Source: a virus (taxonomy: Duplodnaviria > Heunggongvirae > Uroviricota > Caudoviricetes). From it: DNA of 5,898 bases. Below the pieces are notes generated by a model. It had not been told where the DNA came from, searched no databases, and saw nothing but the letters and a program-made list of their open reading frames with translations. Location of the stretch: the IMG/VR virus record IMGVR_UViG_2695420487_000019. One strand, 5' to 3'. Each line of letters begins with the position of its first letter. The stretch's first letter is position 1. Both the position numbers and the translations under genes were made by a program. Shown in pieces: positions 1 to 5,898 of the stretch.

Positions 1-316
1 TATAATAAACTTACTTTTTTATCATTTTTCCACTTTAACAACATTTTGCTCCACTTTTCCACGACCAAACAACTTGAAATCTGGTTAAAATAACACGCAA
101 CACTATTCTTCTTCCTTGAGTCCGCCCGGAACTCGAAAAACAAACCGAGTTAAAGCCATTTTTCACAAAATCGATTTTGGGTCTCACCAAAGTTACGGGG
201 TTGCATACGCATTCGTTTATTTTCGAACGTGTACATACAAATATGCACAAAAATAATCAAAATTATTTTCTGAGATGCATTATGATATGAAAACCAATTT
301 CGTATAGAGTCTCACT

Positions 317-907
317 ATGTCTCGAATTTTTGCTTACTGTCGGATATCAACGCTGGATCAGACCACCGAAAATCAACGCCGGGAAATCGAAAGTGCAGGT
401 TTTAAAATCAAACCTCAGCAAATAATCGAAGAACACATTAGCGGCTCAGCAGCAACCAGTGAGCGTCCTGGTTTTAACCGGTTGCTTGCTCGCCTGAAAT
501 GTGGTGATCAATTGATTGTGACAAAACTGGATCGCCTTGGTTGTAATGCAATGGATATCAGGAAAACAGTGGAACAACTGACCGAAACAGGTATCAGAGT
601 GCATTGCTTAGCATTGGGGGGCATTGACCTGACCAGTCCAACAGGAAAAATGATGATGCACGTAATTTCAGCAGTCGCTGAATTTGAACGAGACCTTTTA
701 CTTGAACGCACTCATTCCGGGATAGTAAGAGCCCGCGGCGCAGGGAAACGTTTTGGTCGACCACCTGTGTTAAATGAAGAACAGAAACAGGTGGTATTCG
801 AACGAATTAAGTCAGGTGTAAGTATAAGTGCCATTGCCCGGGAATTCAAAACCTCGCGGCAAACCATTTTAAGAGCCAAAGCAAAACTTCAGACACCTGA
901 CATATAA
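317..907 (+). CDS. pinQ: Serine recombinase, DNA invertase of the Pin/Gin/Cin/Hin family (196 aa)
   Basis: Intact ORF, ATG at 317 and TAA at 905-907. N-terminus [15 protein letters not shown] has the resolvase/invertase catalytic motif (Y-x-R-I-S-T-x-x-Q, presumptive nucleophile Ser11). C-terminus [21 protein letters not shown] is a helix-turn-helix. The protein matches PinQ/PinR of the K-12 Qin/Rac prophages from memory. Symbol chosen from locus context (noh-cos, ynfO, ydfO, gnsB neighbours); pinR-type cannot be excluded without a search. Confidence 0.9.
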
Positions 908-1004
908 AAAATAATCTCGGTGTGAGATGCTTTACGTCTTCCAAGCCCCCTTCCTTGCCGTAAATGGAGAGATACATCTAATTATAGAATTTATATGTTT
1001 TACC

Positions 1005-1580
1005 CTACGGCAGTGCTGGCCATTCAATATCCGGTGCAGTTGATGTATCAACACGGTTCAGCAACACCCGATACTTTTTCCAGGCTTCCAGCAACAAGGT
1101 TTCTTCCTCCGTTGCGATCTCCAGATCCACAGCATCCTGAAGCGGCGCTATATGCTCACTGGCTATCTGCATCAGGCTGTTTTTTGTTTCTTCCGCCTCC
1201 CGGATCCGGAACAGTTTTTCTGCTTCCGTATCCTTCACCCAGGCTGTGCCGTTCCACTTCTGATATTCCCCTCCCGGCGATAACCAGGTAACATTTTCCG
1301 GTAACGGACCGAGTTCAGAAATAAATAACGCGTCGCCGGAAGCCACGTCATAAACCGTTTTACCCCGATGATCTTCAACGAGATGCCACGATGCCTCATC
1401 ACTGTTGAAAACAGCCACGAAGCCTGCCGGAATATCTGGCGGTGCAATATCGGTACTGTTTGCTGGCAGACCTGTATGAGGCGGAATATATGCGTCACCT
1501 TCACCAATAAATTCATTAGTTCCGGCCAGCAGATTATAAATTTTTATGGTCCGTGGTTGTTCACTCATTCTGAATGCCAT
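1005..1580 (-). CDS. tfaQ: Tail fibre assembly protein (Tfa, 191 aa)
   Basis: Intact minus-strand ORF beginning [24 protein letters not shown], the N-terminus I recall for lambdoid Tfa chaperones (TfaQ/TfaR/TfaE). Its start codon overlaps the stop of the upstream fibre-tip ORF in a TAATG arrangement at 1578-1582, indicating translational coupling. Convergent with pin. Confidence 0.85.
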
Positions 1581-1888
1581 TACGCAAGCCTCACAATATA
1601 GTTAAATGCGATGTTTTTGACGGTGTTTTCCGCGTTACCAGCAGCGTTAACGGTGATGGTATGTCCATGTGAACCAATCGCAACGGAGTGCGTATGAGCA
1701 CCAATACCGACAGTATGTGCGTGTGCACCTGCGCTTGCAGCAGTACCCGATACAGAGTGCGTATGAGCGCCTGCAGAAGAAGTGTTAACACTGTATTTAG
1801 AATAATCAGGTGATCCACTTCCCGGAGCACCACTGGAACCACCTGAAACAAATGTCATCGAATGGGTATGTGCACCGGCTGTCCCCAT
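1580..1888 (-). pseudogene. stfQ: Side tail fibre C-terminal tip fragment with repeated His-x-His motifs, joined out of frame to the upstream J-like fragment
   Basis: Translation carries five HxH units (GAHTHS three times, GAHAHT once, SHGHT once), as in the iron-coordinating distal tip of T4 gp37-type fibres. The frame is open upstream to 1984 but that stretch overlaps real J-frame coding sequence, so the Met at 1888 is not a natural start. The position between J and tfa matches lambda stf. The symbol follows locus context and is uncertain. Confidence 0.65.
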
Positions 1889-3135
1889 GCATTTACCGCC
1901 CGGACTGTCAGCCTGTAATTTCCCAGCGCCAGCTGCGTGAAGCGATATGTGGTTTCCGTCGTCCGGGCCGTGCTGACCAACCGCTCACTGCCGTCGTCCG
2001 CTGCCACGGTCAGGCGAAGCATAAAGCTCACCCCCTTCACCACCTTCGGCGTGTCCCAGCGCGCCAGCACCTGGTATTCCCCGCTGTCTGCGGTGACTTC
2101 TGCGGTCAGGTGCTGAACTGCTGGCGGCGTGACACCATTCACCGTGCCGCTCTGGTCACCGTCAAAGTGCGCCCCGTTATCCACGATGGCTTCTTTCTCC
2201 GGTACATGCTGCACGGCAGTGATGGCATACGTACCGTCATCGTTCTCACGGATACTCACACAGCGGAACAGGCGCTGACGCAGCGTCGGCAGCTTCAGCC
2301 CCCACACGCTGTACTCGGCAACGCCGTCAGGAACCCGGCTCACTTTCACCTTCACGCCGTCGGTGACGGACTGGACCTCCACGCTCACCGGATTACCCTG
2401 CCCGTCAACCAGGCTTATCAGCGTGGTGCCGGAGGATGGCAGCGTGATTTCACGGTCGAGCGTCAGTGTCCGCGTCTGGCTGTTCACCGCCAGCACGCGC
2501 CCGCCGATGCTGATCCCCGCATAGTCATCATCACAGATTTCAATGACATCACCTGGTACATGGCGAAGCCCTTCGGCACCCACGCTGAAGTCCACGGTCT
2601 GCGTTTCCAGCAGTTCCGTTTTAATCAGCCACAGCCCGGCTCGGTGCGCCTGCCCCCGCCTGGTACAGCCAAAGGCATCCATCTTCGTGACGTTACGACC
2701 GTAACGGGCAATGGCCTGCGTGTCCTCCACAAGCTCTGTCGCCGTCTCCCAGCCGTTATCCGGGTCAATCCAGTTCACCTCAACGGCATTATGGCGGTCC
2801 TTCAGGGCGCTGAAGCTGTAGCGGAACGGCGCGCCATCATCCGGCATCACCACATTACTGCGGTTATAGGTCCACACCTTATCTGATGGTCGGTCCTGCA
2901 CGAACGTCAGCGTCTGCCCGTTCCATACCGGCATACAGCGCATCGCCGAGCAGAAATCACTGAGAACATCCCACGCCTTACGCTGTGTGGTCAGCCAGGC
3001 ATTACAGGTGATGCGCGGCTCCGTGCCGCCAAAACCGTCCGGCACCGACTGGTCGCAACACTGGCCGATGACATACAGCGCCCATTTATCCACATCTGCC
3101 GCACCAAGACGTTTACCCATGCCGTAGCGCGGGTG
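1855..3135 (-). pseudogene. Internal fragment of a lambda J-like tail tip / host specificity gene (about 425 codons), missing its 5' end, with the 3' receptor-binding part replaced out of frame by the fibre tip
   Basis: The ORF 1855..3222 translation from about residue 30 (RYGMGKRLGAADVDKWALY...) to its end (...[23 protein letters not shown]) matches the central region and fibronectin-III-like repeats of lambda gpJ as I recall it. The first 29 codons of the listed ORF lie on Nu1 DNA in another frame and are spurious. Terminates 7 codons after AWGQ, at the junction with the fibre tip. Confidence 0.8.
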
Positions 3136-3370
3136 GCTGGAGATCTGTCTCGCTGGCCTGCCGCAGTTCTTCAACTTCCCGGCGCAGCTTTTCGTTCTCA
3201 ATTTCAGCATCCCTTTCGGCATACCATTTTATGACGGCGGCAGAATCATAAAGCACCTCATTACCCTTGCCACCGCCTCGCAGAACGGGCATTCCCTGTT
3301 CCTGCCAGTTCTGAATGGTACGGATACTCGCACCGAAAATGTCAGCCAGCTGCTTTTTGTTGACTTCCAT
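3113..3370 (-). pseudogene. nohA: 5' fragment of a lambda Nu1-type terminase small subunit gene (N-terminal winged-helix cosB-binding domain, about 78 codons, then 6 foreign codons and a stop)
   Basis: Translation MEVNKKQLADIFGASIRTIQNWQEQGMPVLRGGGKGNEVLYDSAAVIKWYAERDAEIENEKLRREVEELRQASETDLQP matches lambda gpNu1 residues 1 to about 78 almost exactly (from memory), then diverges to PALRHG-stop where the J fragment begins. It sits the same distance downstream of cosN as in lambda. Confidence 0.85.
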
Positions 3371-3595
3371 TGTTCATTCCACGGACAAAAACAGAGAAAG
3401 GAAACGACAAAGGCCAAAAAGCCCGCTTTCAGCACCTGTCGTTTCCTTTCTTTTCAGGGGGTATTTTAAATAAAAACATTAAGTTACGACGAAGAAGAAC
3501 GGAAACACCTTAAACCGGAAAATTTTCATAAATAGCGAAAACCCGCGAGGTCGCCGCCCCGTAACCTGTCGGATCACCGGAAAGGACCCGTAAAG
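3371..3595 (-). other. Lambda-type cohesive end site (cosQ-cosN-cosB), apparently intact
   Basis: The reverse complement of 3371-3559 reads GGGCGGCGACCTCGCGGGTTTTCGCTATTTATGAAAATTTTCCGGTTTAAGGTGTTTCCGTTCTTCTTCGTCGTAACTT...GAAAGGAAACGACAGGTGCTGAAAGCGGGC...TGTCGTTTCCTTTCTCTGTTTTTGTCCGTGGAATGAACA, near-identical to my memory of the lambda left end with its R3, I1, R2 and R1 elements. The reverse complement of 3560-3590 (GGGTCCTTTCCGGTGATCCGACAGGTTACG) matches the lambda right end and cosQ region. Confidence 0.85.
3548..3559 (-). other. cosN 12-nt cohesive-end core (GGGCGGCGACCT on the minus strand)
   Basis: An exact match to the lambda 12-nt 5' overhang sequence is seen directly at these coordinates. 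Confidence 0.85.
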
Positions 3596-3758
3596 TGATA
3601 ATGATTATCATCTACATATCACAACGTGCGTGGAGGCCATCAAACCACGTCAAATAATCAATTATGACGCAGGTATCGTATTAATTGATCTGCATCAACT
3701 TAACGTAAAAACAACTTCAGACAATACAAATCAGCGACACTGAATACGGGGCAACCTC

Positions 3759-3992
3759 ATGTCTACGAAGAACAGAACCCGCAGAACAACAACCCGCAAC
3801 ATCCGCTTTCCTAACCAAATGATTGAACAAATTAACATCGCTCTTGAGCAAAAAGGGTCCGGGAATTTCTCAGCCTGGGTCATTGAAGCCTGCCGCCGGA
3901 GACTGTGCTCAGAAAAAAGAGTTTCTTCTGAAGCAAACAAAGAAAAGAGTGACATTACTGAATTGCTCAGAAAACAGGTCAGACCAGATTGA
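3759..3992 (+). CDS. ynfO: Small ribbon-helix-helix-like DNA-binding protein (77 aa), YnfO/YlcI-type prophage moron protein
   Basis: ORF with ATG at 3759 and TGA at 3990-3992; a G-rich stretch (GGGG) lies about 6 nt upstream of the ATG. The pattern basic arm, beta strand (NIRFP), helix (NQMIEQINIALEQKG), turn (SG), helix (NFSAWVIEACRRRL) parallels Arc/MetJ-type RHH repressors. Size and position (plus strand just past noh and cos) match ynfO of Qin as I recall it. Confidence 0.7.
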   Translation: MSTKNRTRRTTTRNIRFPNQMIEQINIALEQKGSGNFSAWVIEACRRRLCSEKRVSSEANKEKSDITELLRKQVRPD

Positions 3993-4049
3993 AGCAATTT
4001 AGATAATCGTGCAGACTACGCCCCCTCATATCACATGGAAGGTTTATCT

Positions 4050-4460
4050 ATGGATCAGGTAGTCATTTTTAAACAAATATTTGATAAAGTTCGAAACGAT
4101 TTAAACTATCAATGGTTTTATTCTGAGCTAAAACATCACAATGTCTCACATTACATTTACTATTTAGCCACAGAGAATGTTCATATTGTATTAAAAAATG
4201 ATAATACAGTGTTATTAAAGGGCCTAAAAAACATTGTGTCTGTCAAATTTTCAAAGGATAGGCATCTTATAGAAACGACCTCTAATAAGCTGAAATCCAG
4301 AGAGATCACATTTCAGGAATACAGAAGAAACCTTGCTAAAGCAGGAGTTTTTCGGTGGGTTACAAATATCCACGAACAAAAAAGATATTACTATACCTTT
4401 GATAATTCATTACTATTTACTGAAAGCATCCAGAAAACTACACAGATCTTACCACGCTAA
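4050..4460 (+). CDS. ydfO: Uncharacterised prophage protein, YdfO/YbcV-like (DUF1398-type), about 136 aa; the alternative upstream ATG at 4035 would give 141 aa
   Basis: ORF ending TAA at 4458-4460. The ATG at 4050 has a good Shine-Dalgarno sequence (GGAAGG, 4037-4042) 7 nt upstream; the ATG at 4035 has none. Markedly AT-rich (about 28% GC in a hand-counted 60-nt line, 4081-4140). Assignment to the YdfO family rests on size, position and partial sequence memory only. Confidence 0.65.
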
Positions 4461-4469
4461 ACCATAACG

Positions 4470-4496
4470 TCCGGCTTCTCTCACTCCTGAGCCGGA
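4470..4496 (+). terminator. Possible hairpin downstream of the ydfO-like gene (7-bp stem TCCGGCT / AGCCGGA, 13-nt loop)
   Basis: Inverted repeat seen directly; followed by a T-containing stretch (TTGGTTTAAT) but not a clean U-run, so a weak terminator candidate. Confidence 0.3.
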
Positions 4497-4554
4497 CTGC
4501 ATTGGTTTAATAAAAACCATCAACAATTGTGATTTAGATATTCGGAACCATTCA

Positions 4555-4586
4555 AATATAACAAAACCCCGTAAAAACGAGGTTTA
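4555..4586 (-). terminator. Candidate rho-independent terminator downstream of the gnsB-like gene
   Basis: On the minus strand, AAACCTCGT-TTTT-ACGGGGTTT forms a 9-bp stem with one mismatch and a 4-nt loop, followed by TTTTGTTATATTT. It lies 25-55 nt past the gnsB stop (4612-4614). Confidence 0.4.
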
Positions 4587-4611
4587 TGGATAAATTTTAT
4601 TATTGAATACA

Positions 4612-4770
4612 TCAGATTAAATTAATCTTGACATCATAGCTTTCAAGACCCGTCATTTTTTCCCGTGCGGTAAACTGAATACTGGTAACTTCTTTCCCGG
4701 TCTTTTTCTTAAGTTCAATAATTTTTTTTGTTATATATTCAGAAATATCTGCTTCTGCTTTTGTTTTTAA
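4612..4770 (-). pseudogene. gnsB: GnsA/GnsB-family small protein gene, 5'-truncated by IS5 at about codon 5; the remaining 52 codons are fused in frame to 30 codons read from the IS5 end
   Basis: The C-terminal 52 residues LKTKAEADISEYITKKIIELKKKTGKEVTSIQFTAREKMTGLESYDVKINLI align without gaps to residues 6-57 of the 57-aa GnsA/GnsB proteins as I recall them (...TGKEVSEIRFTAREKMTGLESYDVKIKIM). The listed ORF 4612..4860 continues upstream across the IS5 terminus, where the codons L-F-A-P-S are encoded by the IS5 inverted repeat. Confidence 0.75.

Positions 4771-5898
<1,128 letters not shown>

Follow-up and report, generated by a model that had tools for sequence, protein, structure and literature searches.

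The array of five HxH units found in the window, which comprises 5,898 nucleotides of DNA recorded as that of a tailed virus, is most likely the leftover distal needle of the side tail fibre (Stf) of prophage Qin, left behind by a 5.08-kb deletion and in all likelihood a non-functional pseudogene; we give this reading a probability of about 0.92. The original prediction, that the fragment encodes a metal-stabilised trimeric needle, has to be revised in this respect, because the sequence represents what is left at the 3' end of an stf gene that comprised about 1116 codons; this end is fused out of frame to a fragment of the host-specificity gene J and keeps five of the seven HxH units. The window itself covers that end of the cryptic lambdoid E. 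coli prophage Qin at which the tail genes lie. Its genes pinQ, tfaQ, partial tail fibre, partial J, partial terminase small subunit, ynfO, ydfO and gnsB recur with 100% identity in E. coli chromosomes, where these loci are situated between ydfJ/ydfK and cspI, and the annotation of strain K-12 names the corresponding place 'cryptic prophage Qin'. The start codon of tfaQ overlaps the stop codon of stf. The positions of all features are compiled in Table 1.

Table 1. Features of the stf remnant and its neighbourhood in the window.
Feature	Position	Strand	Description
pinQ	317..907	+	intact serine invertase, 196 aa; Resolvase and HTH_7 domains; convergent with tfaQ
tfaQ	1005..1580	-	intact tail-fibre assembly chaperone, 191 aa; PF02413 E 2e-43, phrog_105 E 6e-100
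stf-derived DNA	1580..1881	-	last 99 codons plus stop; shares 97.7% identity with the 3' part of the intact fibre gene L006 (852 aa)
Chimeric 102-codon ORF	1580..1888	-	codons 1-3 (ATG GGG ACA) from J in another frame; codons 4-102 are the stf 3' end
HxH unit 1	1859..1876	-	GAHTHS, residues 5-10; last ascending-strand unit; its H7/H9 are the counterpart of T4 gp37 H929/H931
Variable head (receptor-binding tip) cassette	1772..1858	-	residues 11-39, between two His boxes
HxH unit 2	1754..1771	-	GAHTHS, residues 40-45; aligned to gp37 H966/H968; inside direct-repeat copy 1752-1771
HxH unit 3	1712..1729	-	GAHAHT, residues 54-59; aligned to gp37 H980/H982
HxH unit 4	1685..1702	-	GAHTHS, residues 63-68; aligned to gp37 H989/H991; inside direct-repeat copy 1683-1702
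HxH unit 5	1658..1675	-	GSHGHT, residues 72-77; aligned to gp37 H998/H1000
Conserved C-terminal segment	1583..1657	-	25 residues, common to T4 gp37, lambda Stf and K-12 StfQ
J/stf deletion junction	1875..1881	.	the two homologies overlap by 7 nt, including the perfect 4-nt microhomology CAGC (1878-1881)
J fragment	1882..3136	-	internal part of host-specificity protein J; Phage-tail_3 and Ig_J domains; out-of-frame fusion at both ends
Nu1 fragment	3134..3370	-	5' part of the terminase small subunit gene Nu1 (nohA-like); enters the J fragment out of frame

The presence of five HxH units within about 100 residues was borne out by the translation of the minus-strand ORF 1888..1580 (102 aa), in which GAHTHS occurs three times, GAHAHT and GSHGHT once each, and all 10 His residues fall inside the units. 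Random shuffling of the ORF's own residues produced five or more HxH in 31 of 100,000 trials. The assumed kinship with the iron-binding needle of T4 gp37 proved to be true homology. A phmmer search against the PDB retrieved the T4 gp37 tip (2XGF) with an E-value of 4.4e-25, whereby residues 26-102 were placed gap-free onto positions 166-242 of the chain with 67.5% identity over 77 residues, and all eight His residues of this part coincide with H966/968, H980/982, H989/991 and H998/1000 of gp37. Counted from the C-terminus, the four descending units are situated at -60, -46, -37 and -28, positions shared with T4 and most of 85 long homologues. Among the profiles, phrog_295 'tail fiber protein' was matched with E 3e-40 at its very end (profile positions 695-794 of 794), and the Pfam family PF03335 (Phage_fiber) was matched with E 6e-7 and 29.4 bits for the whole protein against a curated cut-off of 20; its best stretch covers residues 37-50 and thus spans one GAHTHS unit, however, this family describes only a 14-residue phage tail fibre repeat and is silent on whether the gene is intact. 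In a representative library, which also supplied the full-length homologues, 420 proteins matched at E <= 0.001. Conservation of the His residues had been named as a point on which the prediction could fail, and H56, H58, H65, H67, H74 and H76 are each at least 90% conserved in an alignment of 49 sequences. The AlphaFold2 model of the 102-aa ORF, calculated with this 49-sequence alignment, displays almost no secondary structure (pLDDT 57.9, pTM 0.19); it represents an obligate interdigitated trimer modelled as a monomer and is too poor to bear on the fold. Metal binding and a trimer geometry around a threefold axis would be expected for this module by homology to T4 gp37, in which seven iron atoms are held by HxH motifs and H929/H931 are essential (PMC6957217; PMC11705849), the latter pair being described as an iron-binding motif needed for plaque formation (PMC6957217). 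The C-terminus of T4 gp37 and gp38 have been assigned a lambda-type origin (PMC3157838).

The truncation becomes apparent from the Qin locus of strain ET5, which shows the gene order J-lom-stf(1116 codons)-tfaQ-pinQ. Positions 1-1881 of the window correspond to ET5 locus 5226-7106 with 98.8% identity, while positions 1875-3136 correspond to ET5 locus 12181-13442, i.e. 5081 bp are missing relative to ET5, which comprise lom, the 3'-terminal third of J and the first ~1017 codons of stf. Both the junction and the frame shift are visible in a three-way alignment, in which the ATG is seen to belong to J sequence read in a different frame; the J frame ends at the stop 1855-1857 inside the 102-codon ORF. 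Taking the 102-residue segment as a fibre tip is therefore correct for residues 4-102, which derive from stf, but not for codons 1-3 including the start codon, which are out-of-frame J sequence. The same junction is present in 91 of 5426 genomes, and its occurrence in 91 complete genomes makes an assembly artefact unlikely; the allele is carried, for instance, by strains BUCT2930 and CFS3292. In genomes with one side only the stf matches end at 1881 and the J matches start at 1875 or 1878. Intact homologues with the same head cassette carry HxH units at -141, -109, -95, -60, -46, -37 and -28 from the C-terminus, of which the window retains those from -95 to -28, while -141 and -109 are deleted. 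Besides these two of the seven units, the remnant is devoid of the collar (represented by PF07484 in homologues), the whole shaft and the greater part of the ascending strand. At the identical locus, PGAP calls only positions 1580-1786, as 'tail fiber protein, incomplete, missing N-terminus', and marks it as a pseudogene. An SD-like GGCGG can be read by eye 7 nt upstream of the chance ATG at 1888, and late-operon read-through from the Q/lysis side of Qin is conceivable.

By analogy to T4 gp37, three chains of the intact fibre would ascend along the needle, build a small variable receptor-binding head and descend again. Each GxHxH unit, contributed by three chains, would provide six His residues to bind one metal ion, which is iron in T4, at the threefold axis, with seven such units per chain, and the Tfa chaperone encoded just downstream would aid the folding. 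In the window, an illegitimate deletion of 5.08 kb at the 4-nt microhomology CAGC removed the J 3' third, lom and about 1017 stf codons, such that 99 codons were left over, with one HxH unit of the ascending strand, four of the descending strand and the head cassette between them. The stf remnant lies out of frame behind the J fragment, which itself is out of frame to the Nu1 fragment, and the ATG of the '102-aa ORF' is a by-product of the J sequence. Judged from the structural description of T4, the fragment is probably unable to fold alone without the ascending strand, and it is probably not expressed at all. The realistic role of the remnant is that of homologous DNA for recombination by infecting phages, in which a head cassette is flanked by conserved His-box and tfa sequences. 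Lambda has been found to recombine with the stf-tfa homology of K-12 Qin at a frequency of about 2e-6 (PMC3945230).

A selected function of the remnant appears improbable. It would imply that the truncated tip is kept in about 2% of E. coli either as a metal-stapled trimer masking a receptor or as a selected head-cassette donor that alters the host range of T4-like and lambdoid phages. The more specific assumption, that translation from the ATG at 1888 together with TfaQ yields a short, metal-stapled, head-bearing trimer masking a surface receptor against phages in analogy to e14 StfE2, is considered very doubtful. It could be argued that the 102 codons are open and preceded by the SD-like motif, that tfaQ and pinQ are both intact, that the same fusion ORF is kept in 91 complete genomes, and that a short chimeric Stf protein of another cryptic prophage has been reported to block T2 adsorption (PMC12529663). 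However, the start codon derives from J sequence in another frame, no promoter-like site was found ahead of the remnant, the needle has lost two of its seven HxH units along with most of the ascending strand, PGAP treats the locus as a pseudogene, and StfE2 has a different, gp53-like C-terminal domain. Moreover, sister copies of the ORF have lost TAASAG by an in-frame deletion (P0003) or carry the substitutions H58Y, which hits one of the His residues, and T77I (P0001), a pattern that looks like decay rather than constraint.

The neighbourhood of pinQ offers another explanation, namely that the fragment is the silent alternative tip cassette of a Pin-driven invertible segment, similar to S'v-U' of Mu or the P segment of e14, which awaits inversion onto a constant stf part. 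The silent cassettes of Mu, P1 and e14 consist of a tip without start codon plus tfa. The start-less tip plus tfa of the window resembles them, and the serine invertase gene pinQ adjoins both. However, no inverted repeats flanking stf/tfa were found (900-1900), the e14 crossover sequence CCTTCTCCCAAACCAA gave 0 matches at up to 3 mismatches, and the Din-core pattern had no match near the fragment and no excess over chance. Instead of two opposed tip/tfa cassettes, there is one tfa and one tip in the window, and both are encoded on the minus strand. Furthermore, pinQ and tfaQ point towards each other, the genes of the less-decayed ET5 locus simply follow one another as J-lom-stf-tfa-pin with one uninterrupted stf, and PinQ reportedly acts on e14 in trans and not beside itself. 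With no crossover sites found in the window and no inverted repeats, the invertible cassette was rejected and is regarded as highly unlikely. Finally, the chance of dealing with an accidental His-rich, low-complexity stretch in a spurious ORF is practically negligible: the ORF start is indeed fortuitous and another ORF overlaps on the same strand, but such a view is refuted by the shuffle test, the match to the solved structure 2XGF, and the 420 library matches, and the six highly conserved His columns of the 49-sequence alignment speak against it as well.

The HxH units had also been proposed to be encoded by recurring DNA repeats that may serve as substrate for slippage or recombination. Such repeats exist, however, they are short and no stronger than expected from the codon choice for a repeated peptide. 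GAGTGCGTATGAGC occurs in exactly two copies, inside 1683-1702 and 1752-1771, 69 nt apart, the third GAHTHS (1857-1876) is written with other codons and is 75% identical to the copies bearing this sequence, and the GTATGTGC-type pair (1715-1732 and 1862-1879) is 78% identical. Tandem Repeats Finder reported no repeat in 1580-1890, indicating that the units are interspersed and not tandem at the DNA level. An exact repeat of at least 14 nt appeared in 10% of 5000 synonymous-codon resamplings of the same protein; hence, the DNA repeats follow from the peptide repeat and carry no separate signal. The number of HxH units, for which a comparison among homologues had been suggested, does indeed vary between 5 and 11, with 7 as the most frequent value, and in one natural variant at the locus (GCA_025250525.1, contig DAJEMP010000113.1) precisely the 69 nt separating the two flagged 14-nt repeats are deleted. 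A further variant has an 18-nt deletion (GCA_024354565.1). The idea of a recombination substrate thus gains from the variable unit number and from this one repeat-bounded deletion, but not from the length of the repeats. Several other chimeric ORFs have their fusion point in or beside a His box (P0130 gpE|THS, P0014 J|NHTHS, P0163 gpA|THS). An enrichment of deletion endpoints at His boxes was considered as well and rejected: about 4 of 6 junctions lie there, which is not significant, because His-box codons and one flanking codon cover by rough estimate ~40% of the distal 141 codons.

The iron needle that gp37/Stf fibres build from HxH units and the Pfam repeat belonging to it are already known, as are the cryptic prophage Qin and its decayed stf, and the result matters little beyond correct annotation, as RefSeq and genome pipelines already label this sequence a partial tail-fibre pseudogene. 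Database entries for the '102-aa protein' list a chimeric artefact that the deletion junction created. The remnant records the decay of a lambdoid tail region via a microhomology deletion at base resolution. Moreover, a head cassette that also occurs in T4-like phages is preserved here between conserved flanks, where it might be reused by phage engineers as well as by natural recombination.

Compared with the T4 gp37 tip (2XGF), the window shows the same C-terminal distances of the four descending HxH units, an identical stretch of the last 15 residues and a gp38/Tfa-type chaperone gene next downstream. It differs by having five of seven HxH units, no collar, no shaft and little of the ascending strand, by the sequence of the head cassette and by its length, with 29 residues between the HxH units compared to about 33 in T4; furthermore, T4 gp37 is a virion gene, whereas the copy in the window is a prophage pseudogene. 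Lambda Stf (orf401/orf314) with Tfa and other lambdoid side tail fibres share the C-terminal needle module and the arrangement with the chaperone. The lambda-type tip of HK629 has the same final 41 residues at 92.7% identity, but lambda-type tips possess eight HxH units, owing to an extra 9-residue descending unit, and have 10 extra ascending residues and a longer head cassette.

Parallels can also be drawn to the His-box changes in gp37 of T-even phages (Tetart et al. 1996, 1998), where a variable adhesin segment is enclosed by conserved motifs, within or near which exchanges have been reported (PMC3157838). The head cassette of the window is likewise situated between two His boxes, and a His-box repeat lies at either end of the natural 69-nt deletion, whereas the evidence from the window consists of one deletion variant and mosaic boundaries and not of selected host-range mutants. 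Tetart et al. are said to have found in 1996 that host-range duplications in T4 are bounded by GxHxH 'His boxes'; our literature search for 'His box' found no paper using the term.

A further close relative is StfQ (b1547) with TfaQ of K-12 Qin, which shares the chromosomal locus, the neighbours and identical descending HxH units. Over window 1-1771, which runs from pinQ past tfaQ into the last ~64 stf codons, the DNA of the two is 97.9% identical, and the identity stops just upstream of the -60 His box. Beyond this point the two head cassettes differ, that of the window resembling the cassette of the T4-like phages AV116/AV118 and not that of K-12 StfQ. Unlike the window, in which 99 stf codons are fused to a J fragment, K-12 Qin retains 320 stf codons with all seven HxH units, which are fused to nohA without any J fragment. 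The alleles of the window and of K-12 Qin go back to different deletions of a fuller ancestor.

The array of His-x-His (HxH) units in the window belongs to a known family, the gp37/Stf needle (PF03335), and is here truncated and pseudogenised in the well-known cryptic prophage Qin. The minus-strand ORF 1888-1580 is open over 102 codons and contains all five units of the original prediction. Each of its ten His residues falls within an HxH pair, and at least five HxH appeared in just 31 of 100,000 shuffles of the ORF's residues. A phmmer search against all PDB sequences gave a single match, the T4 long tail fibre tip 2XGF (E 4.4e-25). Residues 26-102 could be aligned without gaps to the C-terminus of the 2XGF chain (166-242) with 52 identical residues out of 77 (67.5%), and the eight His residues in this part all pair with gp37 H966/968, 980/982, 989/991 and 998/1000 (chain residue 1 being gp37 785, an offset consistent with the published H929/H931; PMC6957217). 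Moreover, the match to PF03335 (phage tail fibre repeat) exceeds the curated threshold, and phrog_295 'tail fiber protein' is matched through the last 100 positions of the profile. Hence, the assignment of the array to the gp37-tip module and the conservation of the metal-ligand His are confirmed. In the gp37 needle seven iron atoms are located along the needle, each bound by the HxH motifs of three chains, and the exchange of H929 or H931 to alanine abolished plaque formation (PMC6957217; PMC11705849). Since the C-terminus of T4 gp37 and gp38 are considered lambda-type by origin (PMC3157838), homology of a lambdoid prophage fibre to gp37 is expected.

Features of the window and of the HxH array
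Feature	ORF residues	Window position	Strand	Source
HxH unit 1 GAHTHS	5-10	1876-1859	-	
HxH unit 2 GAHTHS	40-45	1771-1754	-	
HxH unit 3 GAHAHT	54-59	1729-1712	-	
HxH unit 4 GAHTHS	63-68	1702-1685	-	
HxH unit 5 GSHGHT	72-77	1675-1658	-	
Serine invertase (pinQ)		317-907	+	Pfam, PHROGs
Tail-fibre assembly protein (tfaQ)		1005-1580	-	Pfam, PHROGs
Host-specificity protein J, internal piece		inside 1855-3222	-	Pfam, PHROGs
Terminase small subunit Nu1, first 81 residues		3113-3370	-	Pfam, PHROGs
DUF3950, DUF1398 and GnsB proteins (other neighbours)				Pfam, PHROGs
IS5-type transposase (neighbour)		4918-5898	-	Pfam, PHROGs

The proposal that this fragment encodes a metal-stabilised trimeric needle was not borne out. 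Searching 1.8 billion representative proteins returned 420 matches, and the homologues sharing the same head (P0122-P0131) are long fibres with 85% identity over residues 3-102. They carry seven HxH units at -141, -109, -95, -60, -46, -37 and -28 from the C-terminus, the same pattern as in T4 gp37, whereas the window retains only those from -95 to -28. When the minus strand was compared by BLAST with the retrieved loci, J homology appeared at 2000-1875 and stf homology at 1881-1580, and a three-way alignment placed the switch from J to stf within CAGC (1878-1881). The start of the ORF, ATG GGG ACA, derives from J: the sequence GCA TGG GGA CAG, which encodes A W G Q in J, is here read in a frame shifted by one base, and the J frame itself terminates at 1855-1857. 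The junction was found with a junction-spanning query in 91 of 5426 complete genomes; the remaining matching genomes contain one side alone, with the stf side ending at 1881 and the J side beginning at 1875 or 1878. In strain ET5 the same locus has lom and J besides pinQ and tfaQ, and its stf extends over 1116 codons, interrupted by one internal stop. Window 1-1881 corresponds to 5226-7106 and window 1875-3136 to 12181-13442 of the ET5 locus, hence 5081 bp are missing from the window allele, namely about 1017 stf codons, lom and the 3' third of J. A second, out-of-frame junction joins Nu1 and J at about 3134-3136. No promoter-like site was found in front of the remnant.

According to the gp37 alignment, the last ascending unit, equivalent to T4 H929/H931, is formed by residues 5-10, the small receptor-binding head is represented by residues 11-39, and the descending strand is present in full as residues 40-102. 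Lost are the shaft, the collar (PF07484 in homologues) and the ascending strand with two units. Because the T4 needle is made from ascending and descending strands of three chains, the 99 stf-derived residues alone would be unable to form a native needle. AlphaFold2, run on the monomer, gave a pLDDT of 57.9 and a pTM of 0.19, values too low for the model to inform on the fold.

As predicted, the number of HxH units varies among homologues. Among 85 homologues of at least 300 aa it ranges from 3 to 11 and is most often 7 (52 proteins), where the counts 3 and 4 and one of three 5-count proteins (P0163) represent chimeric or truncated ORFs or a protein without upstream units. The eight-unit fibres of lambda-type HK629 (L005 5682-6626) and T4-like AV118 (L003 1253-4330) contain an additional 9-residue unit on the descending strand and 10 additional residues on the ascending strand, in AV118 a duplicated SSFDYGTKT, and their first spacing is 42 versus 32. 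Such changes are coordinated on both strands, which fits the need for the strands to keep register along the needle. In the homologues, the head separates the third from the fourth unit by a variable 35 to 56 residues, all other spacings are constant, and at least five unrelated head sequences were found between near-identical flanks of the His box (GxHxH). The window head cassette (1772-1858) shows about 80% protein and 78% DNA identity to that of AV116 and AV118, which are virulent T4-like Mosigvirus phages; here, temperate and virulent phages have exchanged a tip. Many database 'proteins' ending in the tip (P0130, P0014, P0163, P0188, P0121) are chimeric ORFs created by other deletions in prophages, which fused capsid gpE, J, terminase gpA or gpA plus J to the tip; several of their junctions lie in or beside the His box, by a rough estimate not above chance.

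The DNA repeats underlying the array are present, albeit modest. Two exact copies of GAGTGCGTATGAGC occur within 1683-1702 and 1752-1771 at a spacing of 69 nt, a third copy of this type lies at 1857-1876 with 75% identity, and the two members of a GTATGTGC-type pair (1715-1732 and 1862-1879) share 78% identity. Tandem Repeats Finder reported no repeat in the HxH region. An exact repeat of at least 14 nt appeared in 10% of 5000 synonymous-codon resamplings, in which the protein was held constant and the codon usage was taken from the window's own genes; hence, the nucleotide repeats are a product of the repeated peptide and give no extra signal. Their predicted role as deletion substrate is supported by two natural variants. 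In GCA_025250525.1 (L008 1-466), the one draft assembly from which this variant is known, stf lacks in frame exactly the 69 nt bounded by the two 14-nt GCTCATACGCACTC repeats, which costs two HxH units; this stf adjoins ydfI/ydfZ and thus belongs to the Qin locus. In GCA_024354565.1 (L009 2914-3204) the same J-stf fusion ORF lacks, also in frame, 18 nt encoding TAASAG. Since the 69-nt loss takes descending units with no matching ascending change, it is probably another inactivating lesion, and the 18-nt deletion resembles the decay of a pseudogene. Recombination of lambda with the stf-tfa homology of K-12 Qin occurs at ~2e-6 per phage via Red or RecA (PMC3945230), hence the most realistic residual role of the remnant is that of donor DNA for infecting phages.

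The neighbouring pinQ is intact. However, a reading of the tip as part of an invertible segment was rejected, because inverted repeats flanking the tip (900-1900) and a match to the e14 crossover sequence in the window were not found and ET5 shows the plain order J-lom-stf-tfa followed by convergent pin; the Din core pattern is likewise not enriched in the window. PinQ is reported in a 2025 paper to act in trans on prophage e14, where it inverts the P segment and gives rise to StfE2, which blocks T2 adsorption (PMC12529663). The C-terminal domain of StfE2 differs from that of the Qin remnant, hence this provides context and no evidence for a function of the remnant.

Several E. coli strains carry the stretch 900-3400 in their chromosomes at 100% identity. 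Its annotation there lists pinQ and tfaQ together with a 'tail fiber protein', J and a terminase small subunit, the last three as partial, and the PGAP entry for 1580-1786 reads 'tail fiber protein; incomplete; missing N-terminus'. The locus is flanked by ydfJ/ydfK on one side and ynfO-ydfO-gnsB-cspI on the other, and the corresponding place in K-12 bears the label cryptic prophage Qin. Over 1-4771 the window is 99.9% identical to the reference Qin locus, and the match ends exactly at an IS5-type element (window 4771-5898), which has integrated into gnsB behind codon 5, begins with the terminal repeat GGAAGGTGCGAATAAG at 4771 and replaces the GnsB N-terminus; its transposase ORF (326 aa) extends to the window end. 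A perfect inverted repeat of 15 nt, AGAAAGGAAACGACA / TGTCGTTTCCTTTCT (3395-3409 / 3437-3451, 27 nt apart), lies directly in front of the Nu1 start and resembles the terminase-binding R sites of lambda-type cosB; the packaging site may have been retained longer than the terminase gene.

Finally, Qin decayed through different deletions in different lineages. The window allele joins Nu1' (81 aa), J' (about 420 aa) and stf' (99 aa), whereas K-12 Qin lacks J; its stfQ of 320 codons, which retains the full set of seven HxH units, is fused to nohA (189 aa), and its head cassette is unrelated. Sequence identity between the window and K-12 extends from pinQ to ~1771 and sets in again at ~3134. ET5 retains J, lom and the long stf. 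The window and K-12 alleles arose from a fuller ancestor by separate deletions, and neither can be derived from the other.
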